A stretch of 56,884 nucleotides of DNA, taken from NCBI GenBank assembly GCA_964419335.1, contig CAYQOX010000007.1, forward strand, positions 65,189 through 122,072, written 5' to 3'. Origin of the DNA: an uncultured bacterium. GTDB lineage: Bacteria; Hinthialibacterota; Hinthialibacteria; Hinthialibacterales; Hinthialibacteraceae. Positions 3,233-44,007 of this stretch are shown here, in pieces; position 1 is the first letter of the stretch; every line of letters starts with the position of its first letter. Position numbers and translations under genes: made by a program. The notes beneath the pieces are model-generated. The model saw only the letters and a list, made by a program, of their open reading frames with translations, searched no databases and was not told the DNA's origin.

Positions 3233-3243
3233 TTCCAGGCTTG

Positions 3244-29800: not shown

Positions 29801-30649
29801 CAAAGCCCTAGTTTACAAAAACAAATCCCCTATTGGCGAGAAGTGGAAAAATACGCCGGTAAAAGTATCCCCGTTGATTTTCAAGGAGAAGGCAATTGTT
29901 ATGGAGAAACTAAGGCCGTTGACTTTACTTTAAGCAACGAAGAAACCCAGGCTCTATTGCGCCAAGTTCATCTTGCCTATAACACAGAAATCAATGATAT
30001 TCTTTTAACGGGTTTGGCTCGTGCATTGTACGGTTGGATGAATGAGGAAACGTGTTTGATTGCACTTGAAGGCCATGGCCGTGAAGTCATCGATGAGACA
30101 ACCCGTGTATATCGTACCGCGGGATGGTTTACCAGTTTGTATCCTTTTGCCTTGCCATTGCATTACAATGAGGTTGGTACCCATATCAAGGAAATCAAAG
30201 AAGCCCTGCGCCGCATTCCCCACAAAGGAATGGGATACGCGATTTTAAAATATCTTACTCCTAATTCAATGAAGCAAGGTCTGACTTTCCAAGCACGACC
30301 GCAAATTGCTTTCAATTATTTAGGACAATTTGATCAGGAATCAAAGCAAGCCTTATTTACACCCGCGTTTGAATCCACAGGTCGGGGAGAAGGCGATTAC
30401 TTACAACGCGTTCATTTGCTCGAATGGGATGGTTATGTATTGCATGGGCAATTGCAATTCACACTAAGGTATAACCACAATTGGCATCGACACGAAACCG
30501 CATTGGAATTGGTACAGCGTTATGAACAATCCTTGAAGACCATACTCGACCATTGCTTACAACGTGAGACGGCAGACCTTACTCCGAGTGATGTCGCCCG
30601 AGTGGATATGAAAATCGACGATTTTGAGAACTTGTTTCAAGATGAATAG
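14882..30649 (+). CDS. Hybrid PKS-NRPS: KS-AT(malonyl)-ACP-AMT(aminotransferase)-C-A(Thr)-PCP-C(DCL-like)-A(?)-PCP-C(LCL)-A(Phe)-PCP-E
   Basis: ATG at 14882 with a GAAGGA site. KS: DTACSSS (about 15501), EAHGTGT, NIGHTE. AT: GHSIGE (about 16838), HAFH. ACP: GLDSL (about 17846). AMT: class-III aminotransferase fold with the PLP-Lys in YGKIVGGGLP (about 19184). C1: AHHIVIDG (20102). A1 code DFWNIGMVHK. PCP1: GGDSI (22700). C2: LSTMQEGILYHS, RHSALRTSI, SHHHIILDGWS (23315). A2 code DVRHIALLAK. PCP2: GGNSL. C3: SHAQRRLWIL, HHIVFDG (26543). A3 code DAWTVAAICK. PCP3: GGDSI (29117). E: PIQHWFF (29282), HHFMVDGITW, EGHGRE, RTAGWFTSLYPF, FNYLGQF. Confidence 0.9.
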   Translation: MDSITEQKYKETLRKASERIKALTVENESLKNPEPIAVIGMGCRFPGEANTPASFWELLRNGVDAVDEIPADRWDVEAYYDPDREALGKMYTKQGAFLSGVDLFDSSFFGITPKEAESMDPQQRILMEVSWEAFENASLNPAHFRGSRSGVFVGLSNYDYIQSHIHSGDVERITPYSGSGVMFSTTAGRLSYFYDFQGPCLTVDTACSSSLVTLHLAVKSLQKGECDLALTGGVNLLLSLDSYIAMCKVNALSPDGRCRTFDNEAQGYGRGEGCGVILLKRLSESLQDGDRILSVIRGTAVNHDGRSNGLTAPNGPSQQRVIQQALTDARLKPEEVDYIEAHGTGTILGDPIEVHALDTVYGKGRDQENPLFIGSVKTNIGHTEASAGIAGIIKVILALQNKMIPPSLHFHSPSQHITWDQIPIRVASQLQEWEVKDKKRIAGVSSFGLSGTNSHILLEEAPVNQVEVDPQDPRDSYTLKLSVHTEAALKQSALQFSDFLKNHPEVNLRDLCYTANTGRCDFARRIAIVAHTREEFSKALSAYSQEQKSPHVFLSRYQLKNKEVVFLFTGQGATYKGMGKVLYEHHPVFRESLEHCEEILSRYWNESLLDLLYQGEETRLLETEITQPVLVAFEYALAQLWKHWGIQPRVVVGHSIGEYAAAITAGVFSLETGLKLAVERGRLMQALPSRGAMAAVFASEEHMTPLLEAFTGKIHIAACNAPERMTLSGDADALEAFLEELREKNIEFRRLRVSHAFHSHHMQPMLEAFEQSVKQEKCNPPNLPFYSSVTGKRVDSKELLSSAYWTREIAQPVLFKQAVQSLYDDGMKIFLEVGPTETLALFARQTCSEGLFLSSLKKGVSDWARLQTSAAQLYVHGINVDWHTFESPFSGKRIDLPTYPFQRNRYWLDLCPIRNQKGTIASQSTEHTQDTTRNLTLQNETSTTNQQVKKMDIRETILNELTLQLAEVGGFQQEDISPEIRLIEMGLDSLMLVKIGQEVERRYQVELTMSQFFHEIQTLHDLVDYLMEHGDLRAVKGQESAVEETKPNKETRSSLPSIAHESIEPTSNSTVQLMREQLRLMEQVSKQSQESVEKLIQEQLSVLQNRAREDGKNLPATPSASTTHTQPAQPKPAEKKEPRVGGAERFRSLHLQRGGMMNEKQKKFIDELIQRHIQRTSTSKSMTQDSRPVLADWKHTLSFWGQLKEAKYPIISSRSEGARFWDVDGNEYIDVAMGMGVHFLGHTPPVVRQSLERQLSEGMEIGTQCDLTGEVARLICELTGNERVTFCNTGSEAVMVCLRLARAVSQRDTVVLFQESYHGIFDGVLAMEADGKKIPIGLGTPQGMIENVVVLKYGDPESLEKIEELGDELAAVLVEPVQSRNPDLQPQNFLKKLRRITQQNNVALIFDEMITGFRIHPGGAQHWFGVNADLCAYGKIVGGGLPIGVVAGKSKYMDYIDGGVWNYGDESGPSSAMIFFGGTFGRNPMTMASAHAALLELKRQGAELQQTVNRRTRSFCDRLNYWLEKERVPMRVKSFASQWRLVPLGDNDRQPLEMELLYLQLMVKGVYTWERRICFFSAAHGEEEIDYILKSIKESIHELRDAGLAFSMEGDIPKRFVAPTSIQRRLYALCQRPGGEKPYHQPYAYWVNGVLDIDRLEECMQEIILRHEALRCSFHELEGDLVLRIEDEPRFLIERYEARDEEVEEILTRLIRPFDLHTAPLLRMAVIQISPERYLLFNDAHHIVIDGLSFNTIVRDLMDLYEGRTPQPVKHTFLECAALLEKRCDEKRLALLDAFWEKELHGPLPVLELPTDYPRPKEPDYEGEHLISTLDETSLRRIKDYTKKQGISLYIFLAAAYTTLLHRLTGQEDILVGTPVSGRDIPEAQDTVGMFVNTSVLRNYPKADTPFEQFLHEVKETCACVYDHQDYSFERMANRYNNGRPQNRNAIFDTTLAYENANDRIFTIRDLTFTQYPLHDKSSMFDFRLEVIEEQDSLSLDFQYSTQLFSRESIERWVKYFHQLLDEILQDPSTPLGVIDILPLSEKEWLKQCNQTQADYPQKTIIELFEEQVAKTPERIALVFQDTTLTYRELDRWVNRIANALQKKHSISSGDRVGVFLERSEWVICAFLAILKTGGVYVPLDSEYPQERLRFMIEDSGCSVILTQKKLLPLLPAEVQHLAEEIDELDTYEEATMDTSISIDNPAYVIYTSGSTGQPKGCVITHRNVVRLVKNKRHDFDFHEEDVWICTHSFCFDFSVWEMYGALLYGGRVVIASKETTRDPQRLLNLLRAHRVTVLNQTPASFLNLIEVEKKQSKHCLDEHLRYVIFGGDRLEPAALKPWVDLYSLSTIALINMYGITETTVHVTFYPINESDIQSTRGQSPIGRPIPETQVYVCNAMMQEQPIGVVGEMYVGGSGVCQGYLNRTELTQERFIPSPWGEGRLYRTGDLAHRLADGNLVYLGRNDQQVQIRGHRVELDEIHFHLLQHPCVQKALITAHTNAQEQLELVAYYITEGVVTIQELRDHLAARIPMYMIPSSFVTLDEFPLTPNGKMDRRALPDPQSAKVTSEENFVYPRDEIEKTIAQVWSEILGCERVGIEDNYFVLGGDSIKAIQIVSRLFQAGIEVEVRHILEAQTVAGLREHVKDSRSYEKAESRFGLEQEELDNVLRYLGVEAKQVENILPLSTMQEGILYHSIADENSNAYFEQFTYRIRGELHKQSFEQSWNELAKRHSALRTSIVYDQSREPIQVVLRDRPVPFYYEDWRSFSREEQNQKLEEYQQRDREHSFDLSHEPLMRISVLRMEENVYEVIWSHHHIILDGWSMGILVEEFMKIYDSLRANKPIQLPCAPSYSSYIEWLIAKDREESLSFWEQFLCHYEKPVSIPKTKNENAIQDYKLNEHVFYLDESTTQNLQQKAREQHVTLNTMMQSIWAYILGTYNDSRDVVFGVVVSGRPPQLEGVEKMVGLFLQSIPMRVQWDASTKFTQLVQQVQRVFSECESHHVCSMGEILSLTPHKQNLLDHLFVFENYPMLEADWRETLGFSVEDIRSYEQMNYHFGIVIHPGNGLEVKFSYNENVHTTEQMRKIEKDIRSVIQTMLRDESVSLNEIMIGDDSRKHSVQVLEDSLSWWKRDLTVLDLFEEQVMNTPDHVAVEGASRTLTYVQLNQEANALAHALLQANVGRDRMVGIYMGNGIDYVVSMIAVQKAGGVFVPIDPETPRKRLETILQKIEATVVITQASYVQSLKESLHDFYSIVQPEHFFFIDDSNTWRHLSMNNGESDSPIPMITEPLRDRPMVTDSMYVVFTSGSTGEPKAILGGHNGLSHFIQWESYEFDVDETVRTSNLAPVMFDVSLRDLFLPLVNGGSVIIPAPEVRTDLSALAQWMGEKQITLVHIVPSMFRLLLNEVEALSLSPEVFQTLRTVILAGEALYEKDIQRGRALLGEHIEYVNLYGPSETTLAKVFYRIPKSIEGSNRGIVLGKAMDGTKAFIVKNNRAATVGEIGEIYIQTPFDCKGYYGDPERTAESFVPHPFKNESSEQVYRTGDLGRLTANGDIEFVGRLDRQVKVNGVRVELAEIDRVLGLDPNIDQSTVMIYSRADGENVLVAYYTEKYPVNEDALRSMMEQYLPAAMIPNYFVPLDEFPYNLNGKIDRKALPKPEDLVYDRVDYEPPRDEIEKRLVDIWKQVLGVKKIGVNSPFLHVGGNSLKAIRVISWINREFTSDLRIRSFFELATIRKIAEAIRVKKEVAADTIEPLPKQPDYPLSHAQRRLWILHQLEIDARAYNLPSVLLLEGLFDVNSFCQAMQIVVDRHESLRTTFHQINNEPRQVIHDHIAFDVEIVDLRDETDGLKTAKESVRKDAHRSFDLTQGPLIRVLLYQIADERYVLFTNFHHIVFDGTSISVLIRDVLHLYQAFVKKEEPNLPSLRIQYKDFAAWQNAHLAQDTMKEHREYWLKKLEGELPVLNLQTDFPRPPVQTFNGETLSFDLDPNLLTWFRQYCFEHGGSLYMGAVALIKTLLYRYTGQRDLLVGSVIAGRDLDELDDQVGFYVNTLVLRDEINPESHFAQIFESIKQTITEAFEHREYPFDQIVDDLGLDRDMSRPPLTEIMVVYQNMERHDFAIEGVEIKELDIDFHCSKFPLSFVFEEKPNGTLSLKVEYNTDLFRRKRIEHMVGHLHELLHSIKANFKHPVGSLNILPDHEQRLLHQCNDTAYDYPEDQTIVDLIEHQVDQNPHAKAVVCEKVEWTYRELNAKANLLAHRLIHTYKLQAGHHVGVLISRSEWLPVAFLGIQKAGGVYVPIDPTYPHERVSFMLQDCGATLLLTDREFDQTLKQKAKTVLDIRHLNGKDPSNPRVAITSRDVAYVIYTSGSTGQPKGVLIEHQSAVNLSTYHRHSLKVNTKDRVLQFAPASFDASVWEMIMALVQGACLVVTSRECVYDHKQFERYLQKNHVSVATLPPSYVAELPKESLTSLRLLVTAGETARVEDALSLSQSIEYINAYGPTESTICATSHRVDPQGKYQDSIPIGKPIQNMEVLILDEQGQLMPMGYPGELYLGGVGVARGYLHREALNKEKFVQHPYRPEERVYRSGDMGFWNWNKEIEFLGRMDDQVKIRGNRIELGEVEHCINQSPEVNEVVVTTRQEQGRDFLAAYFTSEKEIVPSSVREHVEKHLPEYMIPTYWVPMDAIPTLPNGKVDRKQLPNPVDASINSAREYIAPRTEKETCLCHIWSRVLGLHRVGIYDRFFELGGDSIKAIQIVSHVQEEGYNLTVKEIFRFPTIETLAARLKKNKNLLSTDLSKEPIAFTPIQHWFFEEHQDDIHHFNQSILLKPQHTLCIDALRRALKELVNYHDSLRLMFPFENGERQQRYREKDSHFDLLVKDLSNSVHFEESLKEHAQTIQQSMDLQRGPLFKAVLYRQNEEERLWLVAHHFMVDGITWRILIEDLTLAYQQSLEGKQITLPPKSASYQQWSQALQHYSQSPSLQKQIPYWREVEKYAGKSIPVDFQGEGNCYGETKAVDFTLSNEETQALLRQVHLAYNTEINDILLTGLARALYGWMNEETCLIALEGHGREVIDETTRVYRTAGWFTSLYPFALPLHYNEVGTHIKEIKEALRRIPHKGMGYAILKYLTPNSMKQGLTFQARPQIAFNYLGQFDQESKQALFTPAFESTGRGEGDYLQRVHLLEWDGYVLHGQLQFTLRYNHNWHRHETALELVQRYEQSLKTILDHCLQRETADLTPSDVARVDMKIDDFENLFQDE
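18290..19700 (+). other. Integrated class-III (GSA-aminomutase-like) aminotransferase domain (AMT)
   Basis: About 470 aa after the ACP and a low-complexity coiled-coil linker. Motifs include GMGVHFLGH, TGSEAV, LIFDEMITGFR and YGKIVGGGLP (the PLP-lysine context). Its position after KS-AT-ACP matches beta-amination modules. Confidence 0.75.
21040..22560 (+). other. Adenylation domain A1, predicted Thr
   Basis: Hand-extracted Stachelhaus positions from FDFSVWE (D235 F236 W239), LNQTP (N278), VIFGGD (I299 G301), NMYGITETTVH (M322 V330 H331). The code DFWNIGMVHK equals the canonical Thr code. The 517 Lys is assumed from LTPNGKMDRRAL. Confidence 0.7.
24270..25850 (+). other. Adenylation domain A2, non-canonical specificity code
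   Basis: FDVSLRD gives D235 V236 R239. HIVPS gives H278. ILAGEA gives I299 A301. NLYGPSETTLA gives L322 L330 A331. The code is about DVRHIALLAK, with no match to the standard codes I know. Core motifs (FTSGSTGEPK, GRLDRQVKVNGVRVE, NLNGKIDRKAL) are intact. Confidence 0.5.
27500..28970 (+). other. Adenylation domain A3, predicted Phe (aromatic)
   Basis: FDASVWE (D A W), ATLPPS (T278), VTAGET (V299 A301), NAYGPTESTIC (A322 I330 C331). The code DAWTVAAICK is one substitution from the GrsA Phe code DAWTIAAICK. A PCP with GGDSI and a canonical E domain follow. Confidence 0.65.
29270..30646 (+). other. Epimerization domain (C-terminal domain of gene C)
   Basis: E1 PIQHWFF, E2 HHFMVDGITW, E4 EGHGRE, E5 RTAGWFTSLYPF, E6 HKGMGYAIL, E7 FNYLGQF. 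The upstream PCP has the GGDSI signature typical of E-coupled carrier proteins. Confidence 0.8.
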
Positions 30650-33600
30650 GACAACAAACGTCATCACCAAAGAAAGCGTTCAACGCATTTACCCTTTGCG
30701 ACCTATGCAAAAGGGAATGCTTTTTCATTCCTTACACGATTCGGAAAAGGCTTTTTATTTTGAGCAGATCCGTTATCGCTTGAGGGGAAATTTAGATGTT
30801 GCCCTATGTGAGCAAGTTTGGAATGAATTAATGCGGCGCCATGAACTGTTGCGCTCTGTGTTTGTAAGTCAAAAAGTTTCTCAACCCGTTCAGATTGTTT
30901 TGAAGCACCGGCAGGTAGATTTTACGTACAAAGATTTGCGGTATTTATCGGATGAGGAATGCCAATCTTATATTGATGATACATTATTTCATGAAAGACA
31001 ACGTGGTTTCGATCTAAGCCGGGATGCACTAGTGCGTATCTATATTTTTCAATGTGACGATCATACCTATGAGATGGTTTGGAATTATCCCCATATTTTG
31101 CTGGATGGATGGTCGGGATCGATTTTACAATCAGAGTTTATTGAGTTATATGAAGCTTATTGCACTGGAAGAGCACCCGATTTAAACCCTCCAGCAGATT
31201 ATAATGACTATCTGGATTGGTGCGAAAATAACGATCGGCAAGAAGATCTCCGTTACTGGCAGCATCTTTTACAAGGGTATGATTTTGTGGCCACGGTTCC
31301 GCAGTGGAATAAGCAAAACCATGGACAATCGTATGAACCGAGCGAGTATTCTTTTCGTTTTGACCACGATACAACCGAAGCTTTGCTTCGACTTGCGAGG
31401 CGTTTGCAGTGCACCCTGAATGTATTACTCCAAACAATGTGGGGTGTAATCTTAGGGCGCTATAACCAAAGTAGCGACGTGGTTTTTGGAGTCGTCGTTT
31501 CTGGCCGGCCTCCTGAAGTAACAGGCATCGATCGCATGGTGGGGTTATTTATTAATACCTTGCCGCTTCGGGTGCGTGTAGAATCCAATTCAACATTCAA
31601 TGAATTAATTCAAGAAATACAAGAGCAATCTTTAGCGAACCAAGAACATGATTCTTTATCGCTCGCAGAGATTCAAAATGAAATTCAAACGACAGACACT
31701 CTTTTAGATCATCTTTTTGTTTTTGAAAATTATCCCATGGATCAACGTTTGGGAGAGCGAGTCAATCTCTCCACAGTTGGATTTGAAGTGGAATCCACAG
31801 AGATGTTCGAACAAGTAAATTATCCCTTTGGGATGATGGTTTTACCTGGTGAAGAACTACAAATATCCTTTCGCTATGATGAGCAAGTTCACACGTATGA
31901 ACAAATGCGATGGATGGAGGGACATTGGCGTGCTCTAACAGCTCAGATTCTTGAGGATCCAGAATTCACTGTTCAAGAATTGACCATTCTTTCCGAAACT
32001 GAAAATCGCAAGGTATTGTATGAATTTCAAGGAAAGTTTGTGGATTACCCACGATATAAAACATTAGTTGATCTTTGGGAAGAGCAGGTAGCGAAAACCC
32101 CTCAAAATATTGCCCTTCGAATGGATAGGAAGGCCTTGACTTATGTTGAACTGGATCAATTAGCGAATGGGGTAGCGCATAACCTTCGTATCCACCATGG
32201 AATAAAACCGGAAAAGCGGATTGGGGTTTTATTGCCCCGTGGCTTTGATTTCATGATTTCGTTGTTAGGGATTCTCAAAGCAGGAGGCGTTTATGTCCCT
32301 ATGGATCCGAACTATCCGAGCGAAAGAATACAATTCATCGTAGAAGATGCCCAGTGTGAGGTGTTGCTAGTTACAGAGGACTCGGATTTGAACTTAACGG
32401 ACACGAATGTAAGTCAGGTCGTTCCCATTCGTACGCTTATGAAAAAAGTGAAAGCTATACCTGAGCTCTCTCTCTCAAGCGACAACTTGGCATACATGAT
32501 ATATACTTCCGGTTCAACCGGGCAGCCCAAAGGGGTGATGCTCGAACATCGTGGTTTTATCAACATGATCCAAGAGCAAATTTGCGCTTTTGGAGTAAGC
32601 GAAAAGGATCGTGTTTTACAATTCGCTTCCTGTTCATTTGATGCTTCACTTTCAGAAATATTCATGGCGCTTTTAAGCGGGGCATGCTTGGTACTTGTTG
32701 AAGAAGAATTAATCCGCGATGCGAATCGTATGTCGTCCTTTATGGATGAGGAGGGAATCACTGTCGTTACATTCCCACCCTCTTACTTACGGGCTATGGA
32801 GAAAAGGGATTTTCCCTCGCTGCGGGTGATGATTACCGCAGGCGAGTCTTTGCATGAAGAAGATGCGATTTACTATGCCGCCCGTTTACGATATTTCAAT
32901 GCTTATGGCCCGACAGAAACATCCGTGTGCGCTACGTATGTTGAACTTGATCCTGCAAACTTACAGCATCAGCCCGCTTCAATTGGACACCCCATCGCCA
33001 ATACCCAAATACTGATTCTAGATTCATCTCTTCAGCCTGTTCCTTTAGGAGTTGTGGGTGAGATCTGTATCGCAGGAGAGGGTGTGGCGCGGGGATATTG
33101 GAATCGCCCTGATGAAAACGAAAAGAAATTTATTGAGCACCCATTTATTCATGAGGGGAAACTCTATTGTACTGGTGACCTGGGGCGATGGCTTGAAAAT
33201 GGGTGTATTGAGTTTCTTGGGCGTAAAGATTCTCAAGTAAAGCTCCATGGCTACCGTATTGAACTGGGAGAAATTGAAAAACAGATTCAACGTGTATCTG
33301 AGATACAACAAGCGGTTGTGCGGATTATCGAACGGGAAGGGGAGAAGAAAGAACTTATCGCTTATTACGTGGCTAGCCGTGAGATCCAAAAAAATGATCT
33401 TTACGCTGTACTACGTAAATCGCTACCCGCGTATATGATCCCGAGTGATTTTATTTCACTGGGTGAGTTTCCTCTGACGCCAAATCTGAAAATTGATTAT
33501 AAGCGCTTACCCGATCCCCGCGAGAGCGTTCGTCAACTAAAAGAGGTTACCGCCCCTCGAAATTCAAGCGAAGCAGAGATGGTCCAAATATGGGAACAGG

Positions 33601-35069
33601 TTTTGTCACGCAAACCAATTGGCATCCATGACTCATTTTTTGATCATGGGGGGCATTCTCTTCTCGCCATTCAACTTGTGGGACAAATGGGAAAATCGGG
33701 ATTTTCAATACCACTGAAAACCCTTTATGAGTATCCTACCATTGCTCAACTTGCTGAGCATCTTAATGCCATAACAGAAAAGCAATATGATTCGATAGTA
33801 CATGGGCGTTTTAAACTAACGCCAATTCAACGCTGGTTTTTCCAAAGCCGTCGTCATGGCCATCATCATTTCAACCATTATGCTTTGCTAGAAGCCAACA
33901 ATGAGATTGATGTGGAAGTGTTACAACGTGCCTTAAAAAAACTGTGGCTTCATCATGATGGTTTACGTTCACGTTTTGATTTCTGCAATGATGATGTTGA
34001 TCAGATCATTGAAGATGATACATTCTCAATGCCATTCGATGTAGTTGATTTGCGTAAGCACAGTGATGCATGGCCGTATATGATAAATCGCATAGAAGAG
34101 GAACAAACTTCGTTGTGTTTAGAAACAGGGCCTTTGTGCAGACACATTCTGTTTCGTCTATCCGAAGGGGATTATTTCTTTTGGTTAATCCACCATCTTA
34201 TTACGGATGCCATATCTTGGAATATATTGTTCGAGGATCTAGAAGAGGCCTATCATCAGTCTTTCTCCGGTATCCCCATATCCCTTCCACCCAAAACGTC
34301 TTCCTATCAACAATGGGCAGAAGCCTTAAATCAATACGCAGTACATGAAAATGTATTACAAGAAAAACCTTTTTGGCAAAGGATCGAAGAAACCTATGTT
34401 TCTCCTTTGCCTCTGTCCAATTTAAATCCAGATCCTATAAATGTATATGGCGACAGCCATACACTAACATGTTCTTTCCCGCTGGAAAAAATAAATGAGA
34501 CATTTTATGAATCACCCGCATCATATATCTTGAGTGCGATAGGCTATTCTCTTTATGAATGGAGCGGGAATCAAATGTACCGAGTTCTTATGACTCATCA
34601 TGGGCGGGATTCCCCATGGACTTCATTGCAAGTTCATCGAACTGTTGGTTGGTTTACAGTGTATTATCCCTTATTGTTAAATTTATATCCATCCAAGAGA
34701 AAAGATGAGTTATATCAAAAAATACGCGATTGGATGAATCAAGTACCTCACTGTGGGATAGGGTATGGTATTCTTCGTTATCTTAGCCCTATGGAAGATA
34801 CGAACAATATGGAGTGGTCGTCACCTTCCATTTTGTTTAACTATATGGGTGAAATTTTTTCAAAGCGCAGAGAAGGTTTATTTGTTCTTTGCGAAGAGCA
34901 TTCCGGCGCTTCTCTTTCGCCTATAATGGAACGCCCTTTTTTATTAGAAATTGATGCGATGATTCGGGATAATCATATTGATATTCATTTGAGTTACAAT
35001 CAACAAATACATAGTAATGACAGTATTCAAAAAATAAAATGGGGTATAAAAAAGCATTTGCCATATTAA
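30642..35069 (+). CDS. NRPS module: C(DCL-type)-A(Tyr)-PCP-terminal E-like domain; no TE
   Basis: The ORF track start at 30624 is TTG. The ATG at 30642 overlaps the stop of the previous gene (ATGAATAGG), consistent with translational coupling. C: RPMQKGMLFHSL and YPHILLDGWS (first His replaced by Pro). A code DASTIAAVCK. PCP: GGHSL (about 33650). Terminal domain has PIQRWFF (33822), HHLITDAISW, RTVGWFT, GIGYG and FNYMGE, which are E-domain-like motifs. The protein ends at 35069 with no thioesterase. Confidence 0.9.
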   Translation: MNRTTNVITKESVQRIYPLRPMQKGMLFHSLHDSEKAFYFEQIRYRLRGNLDVALCEQVWNELMRRHELLRSVFVSQKVSQPVQIVLKHRQVDFTYKDLRYLSDEECQSYIDDTLFHERQRGFDLSRDALVRIYIFQCDDHTYEMVWNYPHILLDGWSGSILQSEFIELYEAYCTGRAPDLNPPADYNDYLDWCENNDRQEDLRYWQHLLQGYDFVATVPQWNKQNHGQSYEPSEYSFRFDHDTTEALLRLARRLQCTLNVLLQTMWGVILGRYNQSSDVVFGVVVSGRPPEVTGIDRMVGLFINTLPLRVRVESNSTFNELIQEIQEQSLANQEHDSLSLAEIQNEIQTTDTLLDHLFVFENYPMDQRLGERVNLSTVGFEVESTEMFEQVNYPFGMMVLPGEELQISFRYDEQVHTYEQMRWMEGHWRALTAQILEDPEFTVQELTILSETENRKVLYEFQGKFVDYPRYKTLVDLWEEQVAKTPQNIALRMDRKALTYVELDQLANGVAHNLRIHHGIKPEKRIGVLLPRGFDFMISLLGILKAGGVYVPMDPNYPSERIQFIVEDAQCEVLLVTEDSDLNLTDTNVSQVVPIRTLMKKVKAIPELSLSSDNLAYMIYTSGSTGQPKGVMLEHRGFINMIQEQICAFGVSEKDRVLQFASCSFDASLSEIFMALLSGACLVLVEEELIRDANRMSSFMDEEGITVVTFPPSYLRAMEKRDFPSLRVMITAGESLHEEDAIYYAARLRYFNAYGPTETSVCATYVELDPANLQHQPASIGHPIANTQILILDSSLQPVPLGVVGEICIAGEGVARGYWNRPDENEKKFIEHPFIHEGKLYCTGDLGRWLENGCIEFLGRKDSQVKLHGYRIELGEIEKQIQRVSEIQQAVVRIIEREGEKKELIAYYVASREIQKNDLYAVLRKSLPAYMIPSDFISLGEFPLTPNLKIDYKRLPDPRESVRQLKEVTAPRNSSEAEMVQIWEQVLSRKPIGIHDSFFDHGGHSLLAIQLVGQMGKSGFSIPLKTLYEYPTIAQLAEHLNAITEKQYDSIVHGRFKLTPIQRWFFQSRRHGHHHFNHYALLEANNEIDVEVLQRALKKLWLHHDGLRSRFDFCNDDVDQIIEDDTFSMPFDVVDLRKHSDAWPYMINRIEEEQTSLCLETGPLCRHILFRLSEGDYFFWLIHHLITDAISWNILFEDLEEAYHQSFSGIPISLPPKTSSYQQWAEALNQYAVHENVLQEKPFWQRIEETYVSPLPLSNLNPDPINVYGDSHTLTCSFPLEKINETFYESPASYILSAIGYSLYEWSGNQMYRVLMTHHGRDSPWTSLQVHRTVGWFTVYYPLLLNLYPSKRKDELYQKIRDWMNQVPHCGIGYGILRYLSPMEDTNNMEWSSPSILFNYMGEIFSKRREGLFVLCEEHSGASLSPIMERPFLLEIDAMIRDNHIDIHLSYNQQIHSNDSIQKIKWGIKKHLPY
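32030..33520 (+). other. Adenylation domain A4, predicted Tyr
   Basis: FDASLSE (D A S), VTFPPS (T278), ITAGES (I299 A301), NAYGPTETSVC (A322 V330 C331). The code is DASTIAAVCK, which I recall as a Tyr code. Confidence 0.6.
33810..35066 (+). other. Terminal E-like (condensation-superfamily) domain at the end of the assembly line
   Basis: PIQRWFF, HHLITDAISW (same spacing as E2 HHLVVDGISW but with Gly replaced by Ala), THHGRD, RTVGWFT, CGIGYGILRYL, FNYMGE. No downstream C domain or TE. Confidence 0.65.
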
Positions 35070-35144
35070 TTAAAGTTAAAAGTATGTACAATATTTATTT
35101 GTCTTATTATATGGACCATCTTAAATAATGAAGGGAAAAAGCCA

Positions 35145-36728
35145 ATGAAAAAACTTTGTAGGTATGTACTGTGGGGTTCTGTTTTTTTTGTTTTCACAAC
35201 CGTAATGGGGATTGGTTTTGCTTTTGCTAGTTCAAATGCATTGCCTTACAAACCTTTTCCAGCAAAATGGCAAGCGGAAATGCAGCATATAGTGGATGAA
35301 GGTGAGATACCCGGAGCCGTAATCGTGATTAAATCCCCCGAATGGGGGGTCCGGGTTGGTACTGCCGGCCATGCCAATTTAGCCGAAGAAACTCCCATGT
35401 CACCTGATTTACAGTTCCGGGTTGGAAGTGTTACAAAATCATTTACAGCTTTGACGCTTTTACAGATGGAACAAGAAGGATTGATTCAATTGGACGATAC
35501 GGTTGATATGTATTTGACCGGGGATAAATCGTTACAAGAAAATGCTCATATTATCACCATTAAAGATTTACTGCAGATGGAATCAGGACTCGAGGATTAT
35601 GTCGCCCATCCCGAAATCCAATCGATGATGAACGCGAATCCAATGACGGTCTTCTCACCCGTAGATCTTCTAAACTACGCTAATTCAATGCCTACCTTAT
35701 TTGCACCGGGTGATACCTATCCGAATCCCTACCAGGTCATGTTATGGGGTGTTGATGAAAGTGCAGCCGAGCCGCTCCCTTATTGGTACTATACCAATAC
35801 CAACTATCTTTTGCTTGGACTGATCATCGAAGAACTATCGGGGCAATCGCTGGCCGAAGAAATGAATCAGCGAATTATGGAACCCTTGGGACTAGAGGAT
35901 ACTTACTTGGCTGAAGAAGGCAATGTCCCCGATGATTTTATGCGTGGTTATGTTAAAACCGATAAGTTATATAATCCCACCCAGCAATTAGAAGAATGGC
36001 GAGACGTGACTGAAACCCATCCTTCTTATGCCTGGTCTGCGGGAGCCGTTATCTCGACTCCCTGGGATCTTTTGCGCTATCTCGAATCCCAGTTTGAAGA
36101 AGAAATATTGATTAACAAAGGAACGAAAAAGAAATGGCTGAATTTTGTCTCAGCCGATATTAAATGGAGTAATGTGGAGTATGGGGTCGGCGGTTTGATG
36201 CAAAGTCAGCGAACGTATGGTGATTGCCGCGGTCATGGAGGCGCTATCCCCGGATATAAAACCTTATTATATTATTTCCATGATGATGAAACCTCGTTTG
36301 TCCTTAGCGCCAATACTTGGGATGGTCATGCAGAGATCGATTTGCTGGATGCGATTATGCCGATGGTGTTGGATCAACACGCAACCTATCCTCTGCCAGA
36401 AGACCAATCTGCAGATGTCGGTTTTAGCGAGAATGGTGGTGTTGCTCTTTCTTGGCAGCCGGGTACGATCTACGGCGATCAATATCGTGTTTACATCGGC
36501 CTGAATGAAGCGGATGTAGAAGCGGCTGATGAATCCTCTTCCGAAGTAGAACAACTTTTAATTCAAGATGAAACGGAAACCGTCGTTATGGAATTAGAAG
36601 ACAATACGACATACTACTGGCGTGTAGATACCATTTCAAATAATCAGGGTACCTTTCCCGGACCGGTATGGTCTTTCACTACGGGAGAAAAGGAAGGTTC
36701 ACCTGTCGCCCAGTGGAAAGATATGTAA
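35145..36728 (+). CDS. Beta-lactamase/PBP-fold serine hydrolase (PF00144-like) with C-terminal beta-sandwich extension; candidate trans-acting release/cyclase enzyme or esterase
   Basis: ATG at 35145 with AAGGGAAAAAG upstream. The N-terminal hydrophobic segment MKKLCRYVLWGSVFFVFTTVMGIGFAFASS looks like a signal peptide or anchor. SxxK motif in FRVGSVTKSF, YxN in YYTNTNYLL, and a KTG-like GYKT further on. About 150 aa C-terminal extra domain. Only 75 nt downstream of the last NRPS gene, on the same strand. Confidence 0.8.
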   Translation: MKKLCRYVLWGSVFFVFTTVMGIGFAFASSNALPYKPFPAKWQAEMQHIVDEGEIPGAVIVIKSPEWGVRVGTAGHANLAEETPMSPDLQFRVGSVTKSFTALTLLQMEQEGLIQLDDTVDMYLTGDKSLQENAHIITIKDLLQMESGLEDYVAHPEIQSMMNANPMTVFSPVDLLNYANSMPTLFAPGDTYPNPYQVMLWGVDESAAEPLPYWYYTNTNYLLLGLIIEELSGQSLAEEMNQRIMEPLGLEDTYLAEEGNVPDDFMRGYVKTDKLYNPTQQLEEWRDVTETHPSYAWSAGAVISTPWDLLRYLESQFEEEILINKGTKKKWLNFVSADIKWSNVEYGVGGLMQSQRTYGDCRGHGGAIPGYKTLLYYFHDDETSFVLSANTWDGHAEIDLLDAIMPMVLDQHATYPLPEDQSADVGFSENGGVALSWQPGTIYGDQYRVYIGLNEADVEAADESSSEVEQLLIQDETETVVMELEDNTTYYWRVDTISNNQGTFPGPVWSFTTGEKEGSPVAQWKDM

Positions 36729-36750
36729 GATATGGTACGTTCGCTGGTTG

Positions 36751-36785
36751 TTCAGCCCATCGAGAGAGACTCCCGGTGGGCTGAA
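36751..36785. terminator. Hairpin between convergent genes (possible bidirectional terminator)
   Basis: TTCAGCCCA (36751..36759) pairs with TGGGCTGAA (36777..36785), giving a 9-bp stem and a 17-nt loop. It lies exactly between the bla-fold stop (36728) and the asnB stop (36786). No clear U-tract. Confidence 0.3.
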
Positions 36786-38654
36786 TTATGTTAAATCGGG
36801 GATGCTAAATGTCTCGATGAATATTTGAAAGGTAAGGATGATCATTAAAAAATCCAGCTCGAAGGTTGTATTGATGGAAGCACTCTTTTGAGAGTACATG
36901 GTTTTTAGACGTTCGACCGTCTCGGGATGAAAGTATCCTTGCCGCTGGATACGTTCATAAGACAATAAGTCTTGGATCCATTCGATATTTTTCTGTAAAA
37001 GATAAGGACTACCAGGAGCGACGAAGCCGAACTTTTCTCGGCTCATGATGGCCGCGGGAAGGTAACGTTTCGCAACCTGACGCAAAAGATATTTCTCTTG
37101 GGATTGGTGCACCATAAGGTCAGGGGGAATCGATGCCGTATAATCGATGAGGGTGGGATCAAGAAAAGGATAGCGTGCTTCTACAGAATTCGCATAAGCG
37201 ACCCGATCCCCATGATCGGCAACCAAATGATCGGCTAATCGCACTTTAAAATCAACATAGGAACGTTTATGGATAGGATGACGGTTTCGGATTTTCTTAT
37301 GATCTATCAGGGGATGTTGGGTGGAATCAAATTCATCCATGCTTTCGGCTAATTGAGAAGAATACAACGCTGACTTATTTTCACGGAAAGCATAATAATC
37401 ACGTTCATAAAAGAAATTCTCATCACCCCACAGGGTCTCCCGCACTTCGTTTTCCAACATGGCTTCAGCATCGAAAGGATCGATTTCTCTCTCTCGATTT
37501 TGATCCAAACGATACCCAACATACCCTCCGAAGAGCTCATCCGCACCCTCGCCGGTAAGGATTACTTTCAAACCGGTGTTTTTTACCAGTTCCGAAAGGG
37601 CTAAAGAACAAGTGTCATAGGATTCTTTCAGGGGACATTCCGTATAATAAATGACGTCGCGCAATCGCTTAATCATTTCCTCATGATCAAACAAGGTCTC
37701 GTGATGGATCGAACCGACTTGTTCAGCCATAATCTTTTGATAAGGACGTTCGCTGATGTCAGATTGCGGGAACGTAATGGAAAAGGAATGACGCCCTTCA
37801 TTGGGGGAGAGAGAATGAATTTTGGAGGCGATTAAACTTGAATCCATCCCCCCGCTTAAGTAGAAACCTACGGGGACATCCGCTTGTAAACGATGTTGAA
37901 CCGCCTGAGTTATCTTTTCATCCAGATGGTTCACATAGTGCTTTTCTGATTGTGTATCGGGGATCTGAGATAATTCAGGATATTCAATATCCCAATATTC
38001 ACACACTTGCACTTGCCCCTGTTTCATAAGCAAGTAATGCCCTGGCTTGAGTGAGGATACATCACGAAACATGGTAGTAGGACTGACTAATCCGGGAAAA
38101 GTAATGATTTGATCCAGGCCGGTAAGATTAACCCGGCGGCTGACATCAGGATGTACGAGTAGACTCTTTATCTCAGATGCGAAAAGCAGATGATTTTTGG
38201 ATTGTGCATAGAATAGAGGAGCAATCCCTACGTGATCGCGCGCGAGAAGGAGGATTTTGCTTTTTTGATCGTACAGGGCCAATGCAAATTGACCATTTAA
38301 CCGATGGAGGAAATCTGTTCCATACGCTTCATACAAATGAACCAAGACTTCTACATCACATTGTGTACGAAAGCGATGGCCTTTGTTTTCTAGCTCGTTG
38401 CGCAAGCTACGGAAATTATAGATCTCACCATTGCATACCGAGAAAATAGAATGGTCTTCGTTGAAATGAGGTTGATTACCACCCGCCAGATCAATGATTG
38501 CCAAGCGGCTAAAGCCAAAACTTACACCGGGGACCCTATGAAAACCTAAATCATCCGGACCGCGATGAGAGAGGCACTGGGTCATGTTATGGATCAATTC
38601 TGTATCAATAGACTCTCTTTGATGATAATCAACAATGCCTGTTATTCCGCACAT
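36786..38654 (-). CDS. Asparagine synthetase (glutamine-hydrolysing) AsnB-family amidotransferase
   Basis: The ORF track start at 38696 is TTG. The internal ATG at 38652-38654 gives an N-terminus of MCGITGIVDY (Ntn-Cys2 glutaminase). Synthetase domain has SGGMDSS (PP-loop). Convergent with the beta-lactamase-fold gene. Confidence 0.85.
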   Translation of the reverse strand: MCGITGIVDYHQRESIDTELIHNMTQCLSHRGPDDLGFHRVPGVSFGFSRLAIIDLAGGNQPHFNEDHSIFSVCNGEIYNFRSLRNELENKGHRFRTQCDVEVLVHLYEAYGTDFLHRLNGQFALALYDQKSKILLLARDHVGIAPLFYAQSKNHLLFASEIKSLLVHPDVSRRVNLTGLDQIITFPGLVSPTTMFRDVSSLKPGHYLLMKQGQVQVCEYWDIEYPELSQIPDTQSEKHYVNHLDEKITQAVQHRLQADVPVGFYLSGGMDSSLIASKIHSLSPNEGRHSFSITFPQSDISERPYQKIMAEQVGSIHHETLFDHEEMIKRLRDVIYYTECPLKESYDTCSLALSELVKNTGLKVILTGEGADELFGGYVGYRLDQNREREIDPFDAEAMLENEVRETLWGDENFFYERDYYAFRENKSALYSSQLAESMDEFDSTQHPLIDHKKIRNRHPIHKRSYVDFKVRLADHLVADHGDRVAYANSVEARYPFLDPTLIDYTASIPPDLMVHQSQEKYLLRQVAKRYLPAAIMSREKFGFVAPGSPYLLQKNIEWIQDLLSYERIQRQGYFHPETVERLKTMYSQKSASINTTFELDFLMIILTFQIFIETFSIPDLT

Positions 38655-38699
38655 AGGTGTGAATCCTTGTGTTTTTTTCTTGGTGATAGAATCCAATAA

Positions 38700-40151
38700 T
38701 TATTGGTTGGCTTCTTCTTGTGATTCGAGATAAAGTTTCAGGACCTCGACCATAATTTGATTTTTGGTGAGTCCTGAATCAATCGATTCGAGCGTTAGTT
38801 GATAATTAAGAGCCTTGGGTAAATACACAGTGACTGGAATGAGATCATTAAGCGATGGGGTAGATCTTCTTTCTTGAGCTAATCTTTTTCCCCGCAGGTA
38901 GCGTTGTTGAACGACATCTTCTTTTTGCGATTGAATTCCATTTCTTTCGAAATCTATACGATCCATCCTTGGAGCATCCGTGGCGATATCGGCTCGTTTT
39001 TTTTGGCTTATGGCAAAGGACCATAATGCCCGGTAATTTCGCATGGTTTGAGGGGTAACAATACCCCAGAAGGAAACTTCTTCCCAATATTCTTGGTCAC
39101 CAATGTTGTAATTATCGATATCTTTTTGATCGAATAAATTGCTATCTGTTTTTAATATGGGAGTTACTCCCCATAATTCAACGGCCGTCTTTTGTACGTC
39201 GGGAGAAATGCAATAATCTATCCAGTCCATACAAATTTTATATTTTAGAGATTCCTTAGGAACGTTTGAGCAGATTGACCAATGATCAAGCCACGCGGTC
39301 GTCCCTTCTACGGGATCGGAAAATTTCCAATTCATTCCTCTCGCATTGGCGACCTGAACCGCATATCCCCAGGTCGTCGTAAAGGCTAAATCATCCATTT
39401 CATTAATATTTGGAACACTTTGCCAGAATGAATAAGCATTTTTGGCAAGATCATTGAGTTTTGTACGTACTTGATTAATTGACACTTGCTTGAAAAGCTC
39501 ATTCGTCTTGTAAAGCACATCATAATCTGCGCCTAAAGCCAGGGCGGTGATATAAATATTACATTCAGCATAATCAGAACAAATAGAATACATATTCTGA
39601 TATTTCTCTTCCCAAAGCACCTTCCAGGTTTTTGGGTCTTCTTCAACAATGTCCGCGTTATAGGCGAGAGCGTAATTCCCTGTTGCGACGGGGATTCCAT
39701 AAACAAGTTTTTCCTTTTCATTGTTTTTACCTTGTTCGATCTCTTGGACAACAAAATGAGTTTCCTTAAAAGCGGGGAGGATTTGATCATAATTAGATAA
39801 TTGGTGAACTTCCAAGGGGTGGAGATACTGTTCCTCGATTAAAGGCCATAAACCGCTTTTGTACATGTCATGAGAAGGAGTGACAAGATCCGCTTCTTTT
39901 CTTGTGACCTTATCAAAAAGTTCATCCGGGTTGGCGACGATTTCAATTTTGAACGATAGATTCACATTCTCATATTTGTTTTCAATGAGAGTTTTGAAAT
40001 CTTCCATCAAGGGTTCTGCATATCCTTCGTAACATGAAATCCGTAAGGTGATTTGTTGAGGTTCCTGGGCAAAAGAGATAGAGGTTAGTAAAAAAAATAA
40101 GAACCCGAAAAGAAGCCCAGTGAAAGATTGATTTTTATTTTGAAAACTCAT
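38700..40151 (-). CDS. Secreted periplasmic-binding-protein-like protein with C-terminal ribbon-helix-helix-like tail
   Basis: ORF 38700..40331 trimmed to the ATG at 40149-40151, preceded by AGGAG at 8 nt. N-terminal signal peptide MSFQNKNQSFTGLLFGFLFFLLTSISFAQEP. The body is weakly PotD/extracellular solute-binding-like. The last about 50 aa (IPVTVYLPKALNYQLTLESIDSGLTKNQIMVEVLKLYLE) follow a beta-strand then two-helix RHH pattern. Last gene of the ABC2-SPFH2 operon. Confidence 0.5.
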   Translation of the reverse strand: MSFQNKNQSFTGLLFGFLFFLLTSISFAQEPQQITLRISCYEGYAEPLMEDFKTLIENKYENVNLSFKIEIVANPDELFDKVTRKEADLVTPSHDMYKSGLWPLIEEQYLHPLEVHQLSNYDQILPAFKETHFVVQEIEQGKNNEKEKLVYGIPVATGNYALAYNADIVEEDPKTWKVLWEEKYQNMYSICSDYAECNIYITALALGADYDVLYKTNELFKQVSINQVRTKLNDLAKNAYSFWQSVPNINEMDDLAFTTTWGYAVQVANARGMNWKFSDPVEGTTAWLDHWSICSNVPKESLKYKICMDWIDYCISPDVQKTAVELWGVTPILKTDSNLFDQKDIDNYNIGDQEYWEEVSFWGIVTPQTMRNYRALWSFAISQKKRADIATDAPRMDRIDFERNGIQSQKEDVVQQRYLRGKRLAQERRSTPSLNDLIPVTVYLPKALNYQLTLESIDSGLTKNQIMVEVLKLYLESQEEANQ

Positions 40152-40194
40152 AATGGGTTGCTCCTGTCTGTAGTCAAGGATCATTTGAATGCGA

Positions 40195-41277
40195 TTATTG
40201 TTGCATTGTAGGTAAGGTAGAGCGCGTTTGGTCCATGACGTTATTGTTGATCTGATCGAAGAGTCCCGTACTCTGGCTTTCCGAAGTTTGAAAGATCGTG
40301 CTGGGAGAAACCATGGTCTTGCTTGCATCATTGACTTGAACGGGAGAAGAGGCTTTTGATATGTCCGAGGTATTTCCTGTATTCAAAATGAGAGGCAGAC
40401 CTTCTTCAGGACTTCCAATCACCACAACTTTTGGATTCGTTGATCTCGCGAGTACATGAGTGGCTTCGATGCCTCTCCATTTCAAGAGTTCATCGGATAT
40501 CCCTTCTGAGACAATGTCTTGAAAATCGCGGATACCGGTGGCGATAATAACTTTACGTTTTGCTTCTTCTTCTGCCTGCATAAGCAAATACTGATATTTC
40601 TCCGCGTTATGAAATTCCATCAGTTTGTTTTCAATCGATTCCTTAACCAAAGGTGGAAGTTCGATATTGGTTATCAACAAATCATCCAGTTCGACGTAAT
40701 AATCTTCCAATTGGTGTAAGGCTTCTTCTAAAGCCGCATCTAAGAAGCCATACTCGAGTTGATATAATTCTTCAGGTTCATATTTTCCTACAATAAAGCG
40801 TAAGGCCGCCTCTATTTCAGGAACAATGACATTTTGCAAATAATTTGGGCCTAAGTATTCGTGAAGATAATTAAGATCAGTTCCATCCCGGCGCGGGTGA
40901 TGACGGATGGAGATCGTTATATCCACCCGTAAACCATCGCGAGAGAGAACATGGAATGTATGGCGCGTGTGTTGCTGACGAACGTTATAAATATAAATAA
41001 TATCCCATGGAGGAATGATGTGTAATCCTTCATGAAGCGGGGTGGCTTCCAGCACTGTTCCAGTAAAGCGGCGGTACAATACTCCTCGCTCTCCCGATTG
41101 AATGGTAATAAAAATTTTAGGCCAAAGATAGATGGTTAACGCGAGCAGGATTAGTAATAGGATTTCAATCATGAAACGTCTTTTCACAATCCAGCTTCGA
41201 ATCTTCTCTTTCAGAGTTTTTTTGGCCGCCTCTGGACTATGGGGATTTGTCGTCATGTTTGTGGTTGAGTCATTCAT
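40195..41277 (-). CDS. SPFH/band-7 (prohibitin/HflC-like) membrane protein, paralog 2
   Basis: ATG at 41275-41277 overlapping the ABC2 stop by 4 nt. Same core as paralog 1 (ITIQSGERGVLYRRFTG, AEKYQYLLMQAEEEAKRKVIIATGIRDFQDIV). Confidence 0.8.
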   Translation of the reverse strand: MNDSTTNMTTNPHSPEAAKKTLKEKIRSWIVKRRFMIEILLLILLALTIYLWPKIFITIQSGERGVLYRRFTGTVLEATPLHEGLHIIPPWDIIYIYNVRQQHTRHTFHVLSRDGLRVDITISIRHHPRRDGTDLNYLHEYLGPNYLQNVIVPEIEAALRFIVGKYEPEELYQLEYGFLDAALEEALHQLEDYYVELDDLLITNIELPPLVKESIENKLMEFHNAEKYQYLLMQAEEEAKRKVIIATGIRDFQDIVSEGISDELLKWRGIEATHVLARSTNPKVVVIGSPEEGLPLILNTGNTSDISKASSPVQVNDASKTMVSPSTIFQTSESQSTGLFDQINNNVMDQTRSTLPTMQQ

Positions 41278-42902: not shown

Positions 42903-43205
42903 GATGTTTCATGTTATAAAAAAATGAAAAAGAGCAATTCTTGCATTACAAAATCCAAGAATTGCTCTTAGAAGTCTTTCTTCAAGTTTGTATAGAATTA
43001 TCCATCGCTTTTTCGTGCGGGTTCGGATGGGATTAATAGCAATATACCTCCGATGGGGGTGAAAATTAAAGAAGCGATGAGGTATCCCCAAAAACCGAAT
43101 TTTTTATCTTGGCCAAGAAAGCCAATAATCACACACAGTAGAATATAAAGAACCGTATTTAATAGCAATGATCAATGATCCTTTCAAACCATGTCGTAAA
43201 GGGTA

Positions 43206-43766: not shown

Positions 43767-43861
43767 AACTTTCTCCTTCGTTATTTAACAAAAATGTGTT
43801 ATTGGTTCCCTACAACCTGTTATGTTTATTCATGGAAAACAAAAACGAGATTTAGGATATA

Positions 43862-43894
43862 TTAATACTTTTTTATTCAATAAACAAGTATTAA
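43862..43894. promoter_or_regulatory. Perfect 9-bp inverted repeat TTAATACTT-N15-AAGTATTAA in divergent intergenic region
   Basis: Read directly: 43862..43870 and 43886..43894 are exact reverse complements. Sits between the divergent DUF697-2/ABC2 operon and the lipoprotein gene. Confidence 0.4.
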
Positions 43895-43924
43895 TTTAAA
43901 TATTTTTTGTTAGGTTTCCAATAT

Positions 43925-43953
43925 TGACAAGTTTTTCTTATTTGTGTTAGAGT
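43925..43953 (+). promoter_or_regulatory. Sigma70-like promoter for the lipoprotein gene (TTGACA, 18-nt spacer, TAGAGT)
   Basis: TTGACA at 43925..43930, spacer of 18 nt, TAGAGT at 43948..43953, about 55 nt upstream of the start codon. Sequence match only. Confidence 0.35.
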
Positions 43954-44007
43954 CCCTCATCTTTTTGTGTAATTTCCATAAAAAAGGAGAAAAGGAGAAA
44001 ATAAAAA

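Follow-up and report, generated by a model that had tools for sequence, protein, structure and literature searches.

How does a biosynthetic assembly line that lacks a thioesterase release its peptide, and what is the serine hydrolase encoded directly behind it for? The question arises from a hybrid polyketide synthase–nonribosomal peptide synthetase (PKS–NRPS) locus of an uncultured bacterium of the Hinthialibacteraceae, on a stretch of 56,884 nucleotides (contig CAYQOX010000007.1 of assembly GCA_964419335.1, positions 65,189–122,072, forward strand) that was analysed as a whole and is called the window here. A first-pass annotation of this DNA had proposed that the hydrolase, which has the penicillin-binding protein (PBP) fold, is a stand-alone cyclase of the SurE/MppK type that off-loads the peptide from the last carrier (T) domain. 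A signal peptide, a C-terminal fibronectin type III (FN3) domain and an affinity to R61 DD-peptidase and alkaline D-peptidase (ADP) speak against this proposal. The annotation had itself named three findings that would count against a cyclase, and two of them emerged computationally: the protein groups with secreted DD- and D-peptidases, and the signal peptide is family-wide. On balance, we think that the enzyme is an exported D-stereospecific peptidase of family S12 that processes the exported peptide at a D-Phe–Tyr bond, for maturation or self-protection, and that the chain is probably released by a modified epimerization (E) domain at the end of the line (E*).

A Pfam domain scan of the window located the assembly line in four genes on the + strand (5375–35069), composed of ketosynthase (KS), acyltransferase (AT), dehydratase (DH), enoylreductase (ER), ketoreductase (KR), acyl carrier protein (ACP), condensation (C), adenylation (A), T and E domains.

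5375–8188, + strand: gene 1, KS–(degenerate AT)–ACP
8198–14830, + strand: gene 2, KS–AT–DH–ER–KR–ACP
14882–30649, + strand: gene 3, KS–AT–ACP–aminotransferase–(C–A–T)x3–E
30624–35069, + strand: gene 4, C–A–T–E-like
29270–30589, + strand: canonical E domain at the end of gene 3, after the Phe module (HHFMVDG at 29651–29671, EGHGRE at 30068–30085)
33579–33764, + strand: last T domain (peptidyl carrier protein) of the line, gene 4 amino acids 986–1047 (PF00550, E-value 1.8e-14)
33789–35069, + strand: terminal E-like domain E*, gene 4 amino acids ~1056–1481 (motifs E1, E2, E5, E6 and E7 kept)

The absence of a thioesterase from the four genes, already remarked on in the annotation, was confirmed: the Pfam scan gave no thioesterase or alpha/beta-hydrolase match in these genes or in the other open reading frames (ORFs) of at least 150 amino acids in the window. 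A conserved 395-amino-acid ORF (44008–45195) was considered as a hidden hydrolase and discarded, being coiled-coil-like, with no Pfam match and no hydrolase signal.

The gene for the serine hydrolase (35145–36728, + strand, 527 amino acids) starts 75 nt after gene 4 (gap at 35070–35144), with GAAGGG 9 nt before its ATG and no terminator-like site in the gap. Its product matches PF00144 (Beta-lactamase) with an E-value of 2.5e-47 and has the following parts.

35145–35231, + strand: predicted Sec-type signal peptide (MKKLCR, about 20 hydrophobic residues, then AFA/SS)
35232–36383, + strand: S12/PBP-fold catalytic domain of the R61/alkaline D-peptidase type (PF00144, matches in the Protein Data Bank (PDB), AlphaFold 2 (AF2) and Foldseek)
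35427–35438, + strand: S95-V-T-K98 box, aligned with HMMER to S62-x-x-K65 of R61
35790–35798, + strand: Y216-T-N218 box, aligned likewise to Y159-S-N161 of R61
36234–36242, + strand: H364-G-G366 box, aligned likewise to H298-T-G300 of R61 and to HGG of alkaline D-peptidase
36384–36689, + strand: C-terminal FN3 domain (weak PF16656 and PF00041 matches; orthologues match the same families)

The annotation had correctly described the length of the gap, the PBP fold, the hydrophobic leader and a C-terminal beta-sandwich, for which the FN3 model now accounts. The Ser–Lys–(Tyr)Asn–His set of the PBP/S12 fold (S95/K98, Y216/N218, H364) is intact and conserved in 41 relatives, among which H364 and G366 are invariant. 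Two of the three catalytic motifs listed earlier, SVTK (amino acids 95–98) and YTN (216–218), hold good; the third, GYKT, does not, since as an equivalent of the KTG box it lies six residues past HGG (364–366), the motif that aligns with box III of R61 and ADP. When the hydrolase was searched against the sequences of the PDB, the best match was Bacillus cereus ADP (4y7p, 3e-35), followed by the D-stereospecific hydrolase dHy1 (6e-29), a Streptomyces S12 D-amidohydrolase (3wwx, 5e-28), R61 DD-peptidase (2e-26) and D-amino acid amidase (2e-21); SurE (1.9e-9) trailed ADP by 26 orders of magnitude, and ClbP reached 6e-8. The AF2 model (mean predicted local distance difference test (pLDDT) score, 92.9) gave the same picture in Foldseek, with R61, 3WWX and 4Y7P at the top (E-value ~1e-29, TM score of 0.86–0.89 on the target, 27–28% identity), SurE at rank 22 (TM score 0.60, r.m.s.d. 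19 Å, catalytic domain only) and ClbP at rank 29. Sequence and model together place the hydrolase in MEROPS family S12, in the branch of R61 DD-peptidase and Bacillus alkaline D-peptidase. Two details of the catalytic domain have no counterpart in ADP or R61: the motif TYPNPY (35715–35732, amino acids 191–196), within a 22-residue insertion just before YxN, and R362 (36228–36230), two residues before H364 and conserved in 91 of 93 relatives. R362 is a candidate binder of a substrate carboxylate.

The leader is that of an exported protein, and the mature hydrolase begins with SNALPYKPFPAKWQ. Among its 94 closest relatives the leaders are divergent and the mature start, ASNALPY(K/R)PFPxxWQ, is conserved; alphaproteobacterial relatives have a Pro/Ala-rich linker inserted after the leader. 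A signal-peptide heuristic (net positive n-region and a 12-residue window with a mean Kyte–Doolittle value of at least 1.6) was passed by 76 of the 84 full-length relatives, and most of the remainder seem to have mis-called starts. In the AF2 model, amino acids 2–26 form a detached helix of lower confidence. Twin-arginine motifs and lipoboxes were each found in 2 of the 84 full-length relatives, and Tat export of a pre-folded enzyme was rejected on the former count. Internal initiation that would yield a cytoplasmic isoform was likewise rejected, because no Met past the leader is conserved in orthologues. At the other end of the protein, the C-terminal ~110 residues were modelled separately by AF2 (pLDDT 83.8), and the top 50 of 50 PDB matches of this model in Foldseek were FN3 domains, a fold typical of bacterial proteins found outside the cytoplasm. 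No C-terminal transmembrane (TM) helices were detected, as there is no hydrophobic stretch past amino acid 30. Judged by these sequence features, the hydrolase is exported, with its active site outside the cytoplasm.

This location bears directly on the cyclase first proposed, a stand-alone cytoplasmic PBP-type thioesterase that would close the peptide head to tail off the last T domain. The locus does resemble those of SurE, PenA, Ulm16, WolJ and FlkO in that a stand-alone PBP-fold gene adjoins an NRPS without a thioesterase, whose last domains are T and one of the E type; the same types of catalytic residue (Ser/Lys/Tyr-Asn/His) are intact, and SurE is a detectable though distant relative. 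PBP-type thioesterases, however, act in trans on the NRPS and carry at the C terminus a lipocalin-like domain built from eight antiparallel strands (PMC11735501), where the window hydrolase has FN3. Moreover, an enzyme with predicted Sec export cannot unload a peptide from a cytoplasmic carrier domain, and the signal peptide runs through the whole family. SurE matches far below ADP and superposes on the catalytic domain only, and the loss of the catalytic Glu from E* in all orthologues (see below) weakens the case for the C-terminal D-residue that such a cyclase requires. Given the signal peptide, FN3 and no more than a distant similarity to SurE, we rejected a SurE-type off-loader and hold it to be very unlikely.

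If the hydrolase does not unload the line, attention turns to E*. The last 429 residues of gene 4 align over their whole length to E domains of solved structure at 30–36% identity, and the best PDB matches are the true E domains of BacC, TycB, GrsA and TycA (E-values 1e-67 to 1e-59). The motifs PIQRWFF, HHLITDA (34191–34211), RTVGWFT, GIGYG and FNYMG are all where the annotation had put them. What it overlooked is the E4 motif, in which EGHGRE has become THHGRD (34593–34610): relative to solved E domains, HHLVVDG reads HHLITDA and L-E-G-H-G-R-E reads M-T-H-H-G-R-D. E* thereby shares with the GrsA, TycA, TycB and BacC E domains a full-length alignment and motifs E1, E2 (HHxxxD), E5, E6 and E7, but differs in having Thr (T1324) at the position of the catalytic Glu (E892 in GrsA, E882 in TycA) and, compared with ordinary E domains, in being terminal, without a downstream C domain. 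As a member of the E domains it has the motifs and the best similarity, and of the His and Glu pair only the His, that of HHxxxD, which is common to C and E domains.

This substitution is not peculiar to the window. All 25 of 25 orthologous terminal domains have S, T, A or M in place of the Glu, and the DG of HHxxxDG has become DA in 24 of them. For background, a homologue search with E* yielded mostly short fragments of ordinary E domains, which were used for the Glu count only; here 63 of 65 sequences have the Glu and two lack it, and the Gly after the Asp varies. Loss of the Glu is, by these alignments, a fixed trait of E*, and the His and motifs E1, E5, E6 and E7 appear to be still under selection. 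In GrsA, the H753A variant is dead, whereas E892A lowers activity only about sixfold (PMC8905534). Retention of the HHxxxD His together with loss of the epimerase-specific Glu suggests a C-like release reaction, and the chain is probably released from the last T domain by the Glu-less E*. The His would assist attack on the thioester by water (hydrolysis) or by the free beta-amine of the peptide.

The hydrolase keeps the same neighbours across phyla, among them a gene on the opposite strand of the window.

36786–38657, - strand: AsnB-type glutamine-dependent amidotransferase (Pfam GATase_7 and Asn_synthase; TIGR01536 477.8 bits, cut-off 267)

In all eight contexts of homologues with 45–70% identity, including Magnetospirillum molischianum and an Omnitrophota metagenome-assembled genome (MAG), the hydrolase gene directly follows an orthologous C–A–T–E* gene, with an AsnB-type gene adjoining. 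A scan of one genome per species added 24 orthologous loci (41–51% identity), in hosts that include Inquilinus, Tahibacter, Magnetospirillum, Duganella, Sphingomonas, Bryobacterales, Thermoanaerobaculia and Lysobacterales. E* lies directly upstream of the hydrolase in every scanned orthologous locus where the upstream sequence extends for 1.5 kb or more, AsnB is present in every locus with enough downstream sequence, and the gaps between the NRPS and hydrolase genes are often 9–60 nt, reaching down to 9–23 nt. No orthologue was seen outside a PKS–NRPS cluster in the species-level scan. Orthologous loci number ~30 in total, from several diderm phyla. Identity then falls abruptly below 37%, and only 5 of 53 such relatives have NRPS-like sequence nearby, four from Firmicutes (L066, L067, L073 and L074) and one from a Sphingobacteriales MAG (L065). 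The hydrolase is a dedicated component of a conserved PKS–NRPS pathway that lacks a thioesterase; that it belongs to the pathway had been assumed in the annotation and is borne out by NRPS synteny in every orthologous locus with enough flank.

Such linkage leaves little room for a housekeeping cell-wall DD-peptidase or beta-lactamase that came to lie beside the cluster by chance, or for a variant in which the AsnB/beta-lactam-synthetase-like neighbour points to a beta-lactam pathway. The R61-like fold and the adjoining AsnB homologue are in keeping with these ideas. The synteny nevertheless spans several phyla, with no orthologue found in another context. Beta-lactam synthetases differ from AsnB in the glutaminase Cys and in their fit to the asparagine-synthase model; the window homologue retains this Cys and passes that model, and the carboxyl of the beta-amino acid in the predicted peptide is used in the bond to Thr, so that no beta-lactam could be made from it. 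A beta-lactam pathway with a cognate beta-lactamase was rejected on these two grounds, and chance adjacency or its beta-lactam variant is, to our minds, barely credible.

What the enzyme could act on was read from the A domains. Their Stachelhaus codes were taken from alignments to GrsA; as a check of register, the GrsA sequence used gave the known GrsA code DAWTIAAICK. A1 has the code DFWNIGMVHK, for Thr, and A2 (A domain at ~24270–25400) has DVRHIALLAK, which fits no code known to us. The A2 pattern DVRH[IFL]A[LI]LAK is kept across orthologues, including those of loci L005 and L007, and its Arg at position 239 may point to a substrate that is acidic or in some other way unusual. The last two modules are assigned more readily.

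27542–28561, + strand: A domain of module 3 (A3), code DAWTVAAICK, for Phe
32079–33488, + strand: A domain of the last module (A4), code DASTIAAVCK, for Tyr

Across the loci, A3 is of the Phe type in 25 of 27 readable cases and of the Tyr type in the other two, and A4 is of the Tyr type in 29 of 29. With Phe selected by A3 and a canonical E domain after it, D-Phe is predicted as the penultimate residue, and it is the single certain D-residue of the predicted peptide. The aminotransferase domain leads us to expect a free N-terminal beta-amine, at least until release. The predicted product is beta-aminoacyl-Thr-X-D-Phe-Tyr, with a conserved D-Phe-Tyr end. Our literature searches met with no description of this type of cluster, and its product appears to be undescribed.

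A conserved D-Phe-Tyr end in front of an exported S12 enzyme suggests how the two might meet. The peptide would be exported, probably by the ABC, SPFH and solute-binding components of the cluster; Ser95 would then attack the D-Phe carbonyl (P1 being a D-aromatic residue, as in ADP, 3WWX and TriF), the C-terminal Tyr would leave, and the acyl-enzyme would be hydrolysed. Such trimming after export may mature or activate the compound, by a logic like that of ClbP, or may protect the producer, as with TriF and BogQ. Of these two purposes we lean towards maturation, because the terminal Tyr module is invariant and the coupling is operon-like. The annotation's fallback, in which the protein is a peptidase of the periplasm or serves self-resistance and the terminal condensation-like domain frees the chain, is close to this account and is favoured by the evidence.

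The closest solved enzymes make the proposed cleavage plausible. ADP (4Y7P), R61 (1CEF/3PTE) and the D-stereospecific amidohydrolase of Streptomyces sp. 82F2 (3WWX) are the best matches in sequence and fold, with SxxK, YxN and HxG aligned; all three are secreted and act on the acyl side of D-residues, and ADP and 3WWX prefer D-Phe. The window hydrolase differs from them in its sequence (~27–28% identity), the extra FN3 domain, the 22-amino-acid TYPNPY insertion, the Arg before HGG and an obligate link to an NRPS, which they lack. Nearest in function are exported S12 peptidases that act on non-ribosomal peptides: TriF and BogQ, Lip3 and Lip7, and ClbP. TriF of the tridecaptin cluster is an exported S12 peptidase that cuts C-terminal to a D-aromatic residue, and BogQ (bogorol), likewise encoded in the NRPS cluster of its producer, is an exported S12 enzyme that cleaves after D-residues (PMC8127968). 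The S12 enzymes Lip3 and Lip7, which leave the cell by the Sec route, trim lipopeptides by taking off C-terminal residues that follow D-residues; they have an extra C-terminal beta-rich domain of ~150 amino acids and KGG as motif III (PMC12903863). The window hydrolase has in common with enzymes of the ADP, TriF and BogQ kind an export signal, SxxK and YxN boxes closest to those of D- and DD-peptidases, and, as for TriF and BogQ, a place in an NRPS cluster with a D-residue in its product, a likeness drawn for these two from their published descriptions. Those four are from Firmicutes, whereas the hydrolase family described here occurs in diderm phyla; compared with Lip3 and Lip7, its box III is HGG instead of KGG and its C-terminal domain is FN3.

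By the same comparison, the hydrolase could be a self-resistance peptidase of the TriF/BogQ type, destroying the producer's own active peptide near its envelope and dispensable for the final compound. The enzyme family, the export and the place in a D-residue NRPS cluster are all as in TriF and BogQ (PMC8127968, PMC12903863), and the nearest solved relatives are hydrolases. S12 relatives with less than 30% identity also adjoin NRPS genes in Ruminococcaceae (L066), Anaerosporobacter (L067), Eubacteriales (L073) and Paenibacillaceae (L074), probably in the known arrangement of D-stereospecific resistance peptidases (DRPs); in L074 the S12 gene directly follows a terminal condensation-family domain. 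Against a resistance role, every orthologue found of the window hydrolase stands directly after the last NRPS gene, and none was seen outside the cluster. Genes of the DRP type, by comparison, reportedly spread independently (Li et al. 2018), which contrasts with this strict linkage. The conserved terminal Tyr module (29 of 29) beside D-Phe, too, resembles a handle provided by design more than a site cut by chance. These points are not decisive, and we regard a resistance peptidase of this type as unlikely, though less so than the remaining alternatives.

Maturation after export has its own precedents in ClbP (colibactin) and XcnG (xenocoumacin), periplasmic S12 peptidases of PKS–NRPS clusters that remove a handle at a D-residue. 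The window hydrolase is likewise an exported S12 enzyme of a PKS–NRPS cluster. ClbP, in contrast, has three C-terminal TM helices and acts on an N-acyl-D-Asn made by a C–A(Asn)–T–E starter, whereas the present enzyme has FN3 and no TM helices, its line starts with three PKS modules and has no Asn code (Thr, unassigned, Phe, Tyr), and the predicted cut is near the C terminus. A prodrug peptidase of the strict ClbP type was rejected for want of the C-terminal TM helices and of an N-acyl-D-Asn starter module. The FN3 fusion, an HGG box with an R61/ADP-like core, diderm hosts, the place after a Glu-less E domain and the AsnB partner set this S12 family apart. Nothing specific on an exported PBP-type enzyme paired with a terminal E domain turned up in our literature searches.

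A third fate of the acyl-enzyme would be ring closure. In a transpeptidase-type macrocyclization outside the cytoplasm, D-Phe would form the acyl-enzyme, Tyr (D or L) would serve as a sacrificial leaving group and the peptide's own beta-amine would close the ring without ATP. ADP-family enzymes are known to catalyse aminolysis, the closest fold is that of the R61 DD-carboxypeptidase/transpeptidase, and the aminotransferase domain supplies the free N-terminal beta-amine. Macrocyclization would account for why the gene is so strictly coupled to the last module and why its product has a signal peptide. We know of no exported S12 enzyme that cyclizes an NRPS product; the sequence has no feature that tells aminolysis from hydrolysis, and the 13-membered ring (one beta- and three alpha-amino acids) would be strained. 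The last residue of the peptide does not vary and comes after a D-residue, and residual epimerase activity of E*, if like that of the GrsA variant (PMC8905534), would give a D-D dipeptide end reminiscent of D-Ala-D-Ala; the missing Glu of E* makes such a D-Tyr end doubtful. A macrocyclase seems to us rather improbable, and we would say the same of its fullest form, in which ring closure in the periplasm, powered as in peptidoglycan cross-linking, is combined with E* as a new epimerase-derived release domain of bacteria.

Several points weigh against the peptidase account that we prefer. Export rests on the leader sequence and the heuristic, signal cleavage is a prediction, and 'periplasm' is extrapolated from the diderm hosts of orthologues. 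A window of 57 kb leaves room for a trans-acting thioesterase elsewhere in the genome. The scissile bond is deduced only from relatives at ~28% identity, the purpose of the cut and release by E* are purely our conjectures, and the residual activity of GrsA E892A means that E* may still epimerize, in which case the peptide may end in D-Tyr. Making a residue just to remove it needs a rationale, and the same data fit a role in resistance or transpeptidation.

Other features of the cluster may bear on how its product is made and handled. At the start of the line, the KS of gene 1 is intact (DTACSSS), so that it is not a KSQ, and belongs to the first PKS module. The AT region of this gene (amino acids 515–815) has no Pfam AT match, and the Magnetospirillum orthologue (L008, 11824–15021) retains a match to Acyl_transf_1. 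The first module possibly has a decayed AT or is a trans-loaded starter module. Genes 3 and 4 overlap by 26 nt (30624–30649) if gene 4 starts at the listed TTG; an alternative ATG at 30642 gives an 8-nt overlap, typical of translational coupling of the two NRPS subunits.

The listed ORFs start too far upstream for both AsnB (36786–38696, - strand) and the solute-binding protein beyond it (38700–40331, - strand). The true start of AsnB is the ATG at 38657 (MCGITG, with the Cys nucleophile retained), which gives 623 amino acids as in orthologues. For the solute-binding protein the start is probably at ~40151 (MSFQNKNQ..., signal peptide ending SFA/QE), whereupon its overlap with the SPFH gene vanishes. 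AsnB might supply Asn, amidate a peptide carboxylate or provide an amide starter unit. Its gene lies between the NRPS and hydrolase genes on the same strand in locus L002 (7990–11563), follows the hydrolase gene without a change of strand in Alpha- and Gammaproteobacteria, and converges on it in the window (35145–38696); the NRPS end, the hydrolase and AsnB always stay together despite this varying order and orientation. Around the PKS–NRPS genes (185–4890 and 38700–45195) lies an accessory set of a ParA/MinD-like ATPase, two DUF697 proteins, a phosphopantetheinyl transferase, two pairs of SPFH (Band7) and fused ABC genes, the solute-binding protein, which bears a signal peptide of its own, and the 395-amino-acid coiled-coil ORF. 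These genes recur in distant orthologous clusters (L005, 13580–21575; L007, 13628–20184), which suggests an envelope-associated machinery for export or handling.

For genome mining, the locus carries a caution: a PBP-fold gene beside an NRPS that lacks a thioesterase and ends in T–E is not automatically a SurE-type cyclase, and a signal peptide, an FN3 domain and R61/ADP affinity mark a separate, exported class. The gene trio of a Glu-less terminal E*, an exported S12–FN3 peptidase and an AsnB amidotransferase occurs in Alpha-, Beta- and Gammaproteobacteria, Acidobacteriota and Omnitrophota-like MAGs, and among its culturable hosts are M. molischianum, M. fulvum, Inquilinus ginsengisoli, Tahibacter aquaticus, Duganella vulcania and Sphingomonas sp. 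BK036. Should E* release the chain, the epimerase clade would gain a function new to it; should the peptidase mature the compound, activation after export in the style of ClbP would extend to a C-terminal handle.

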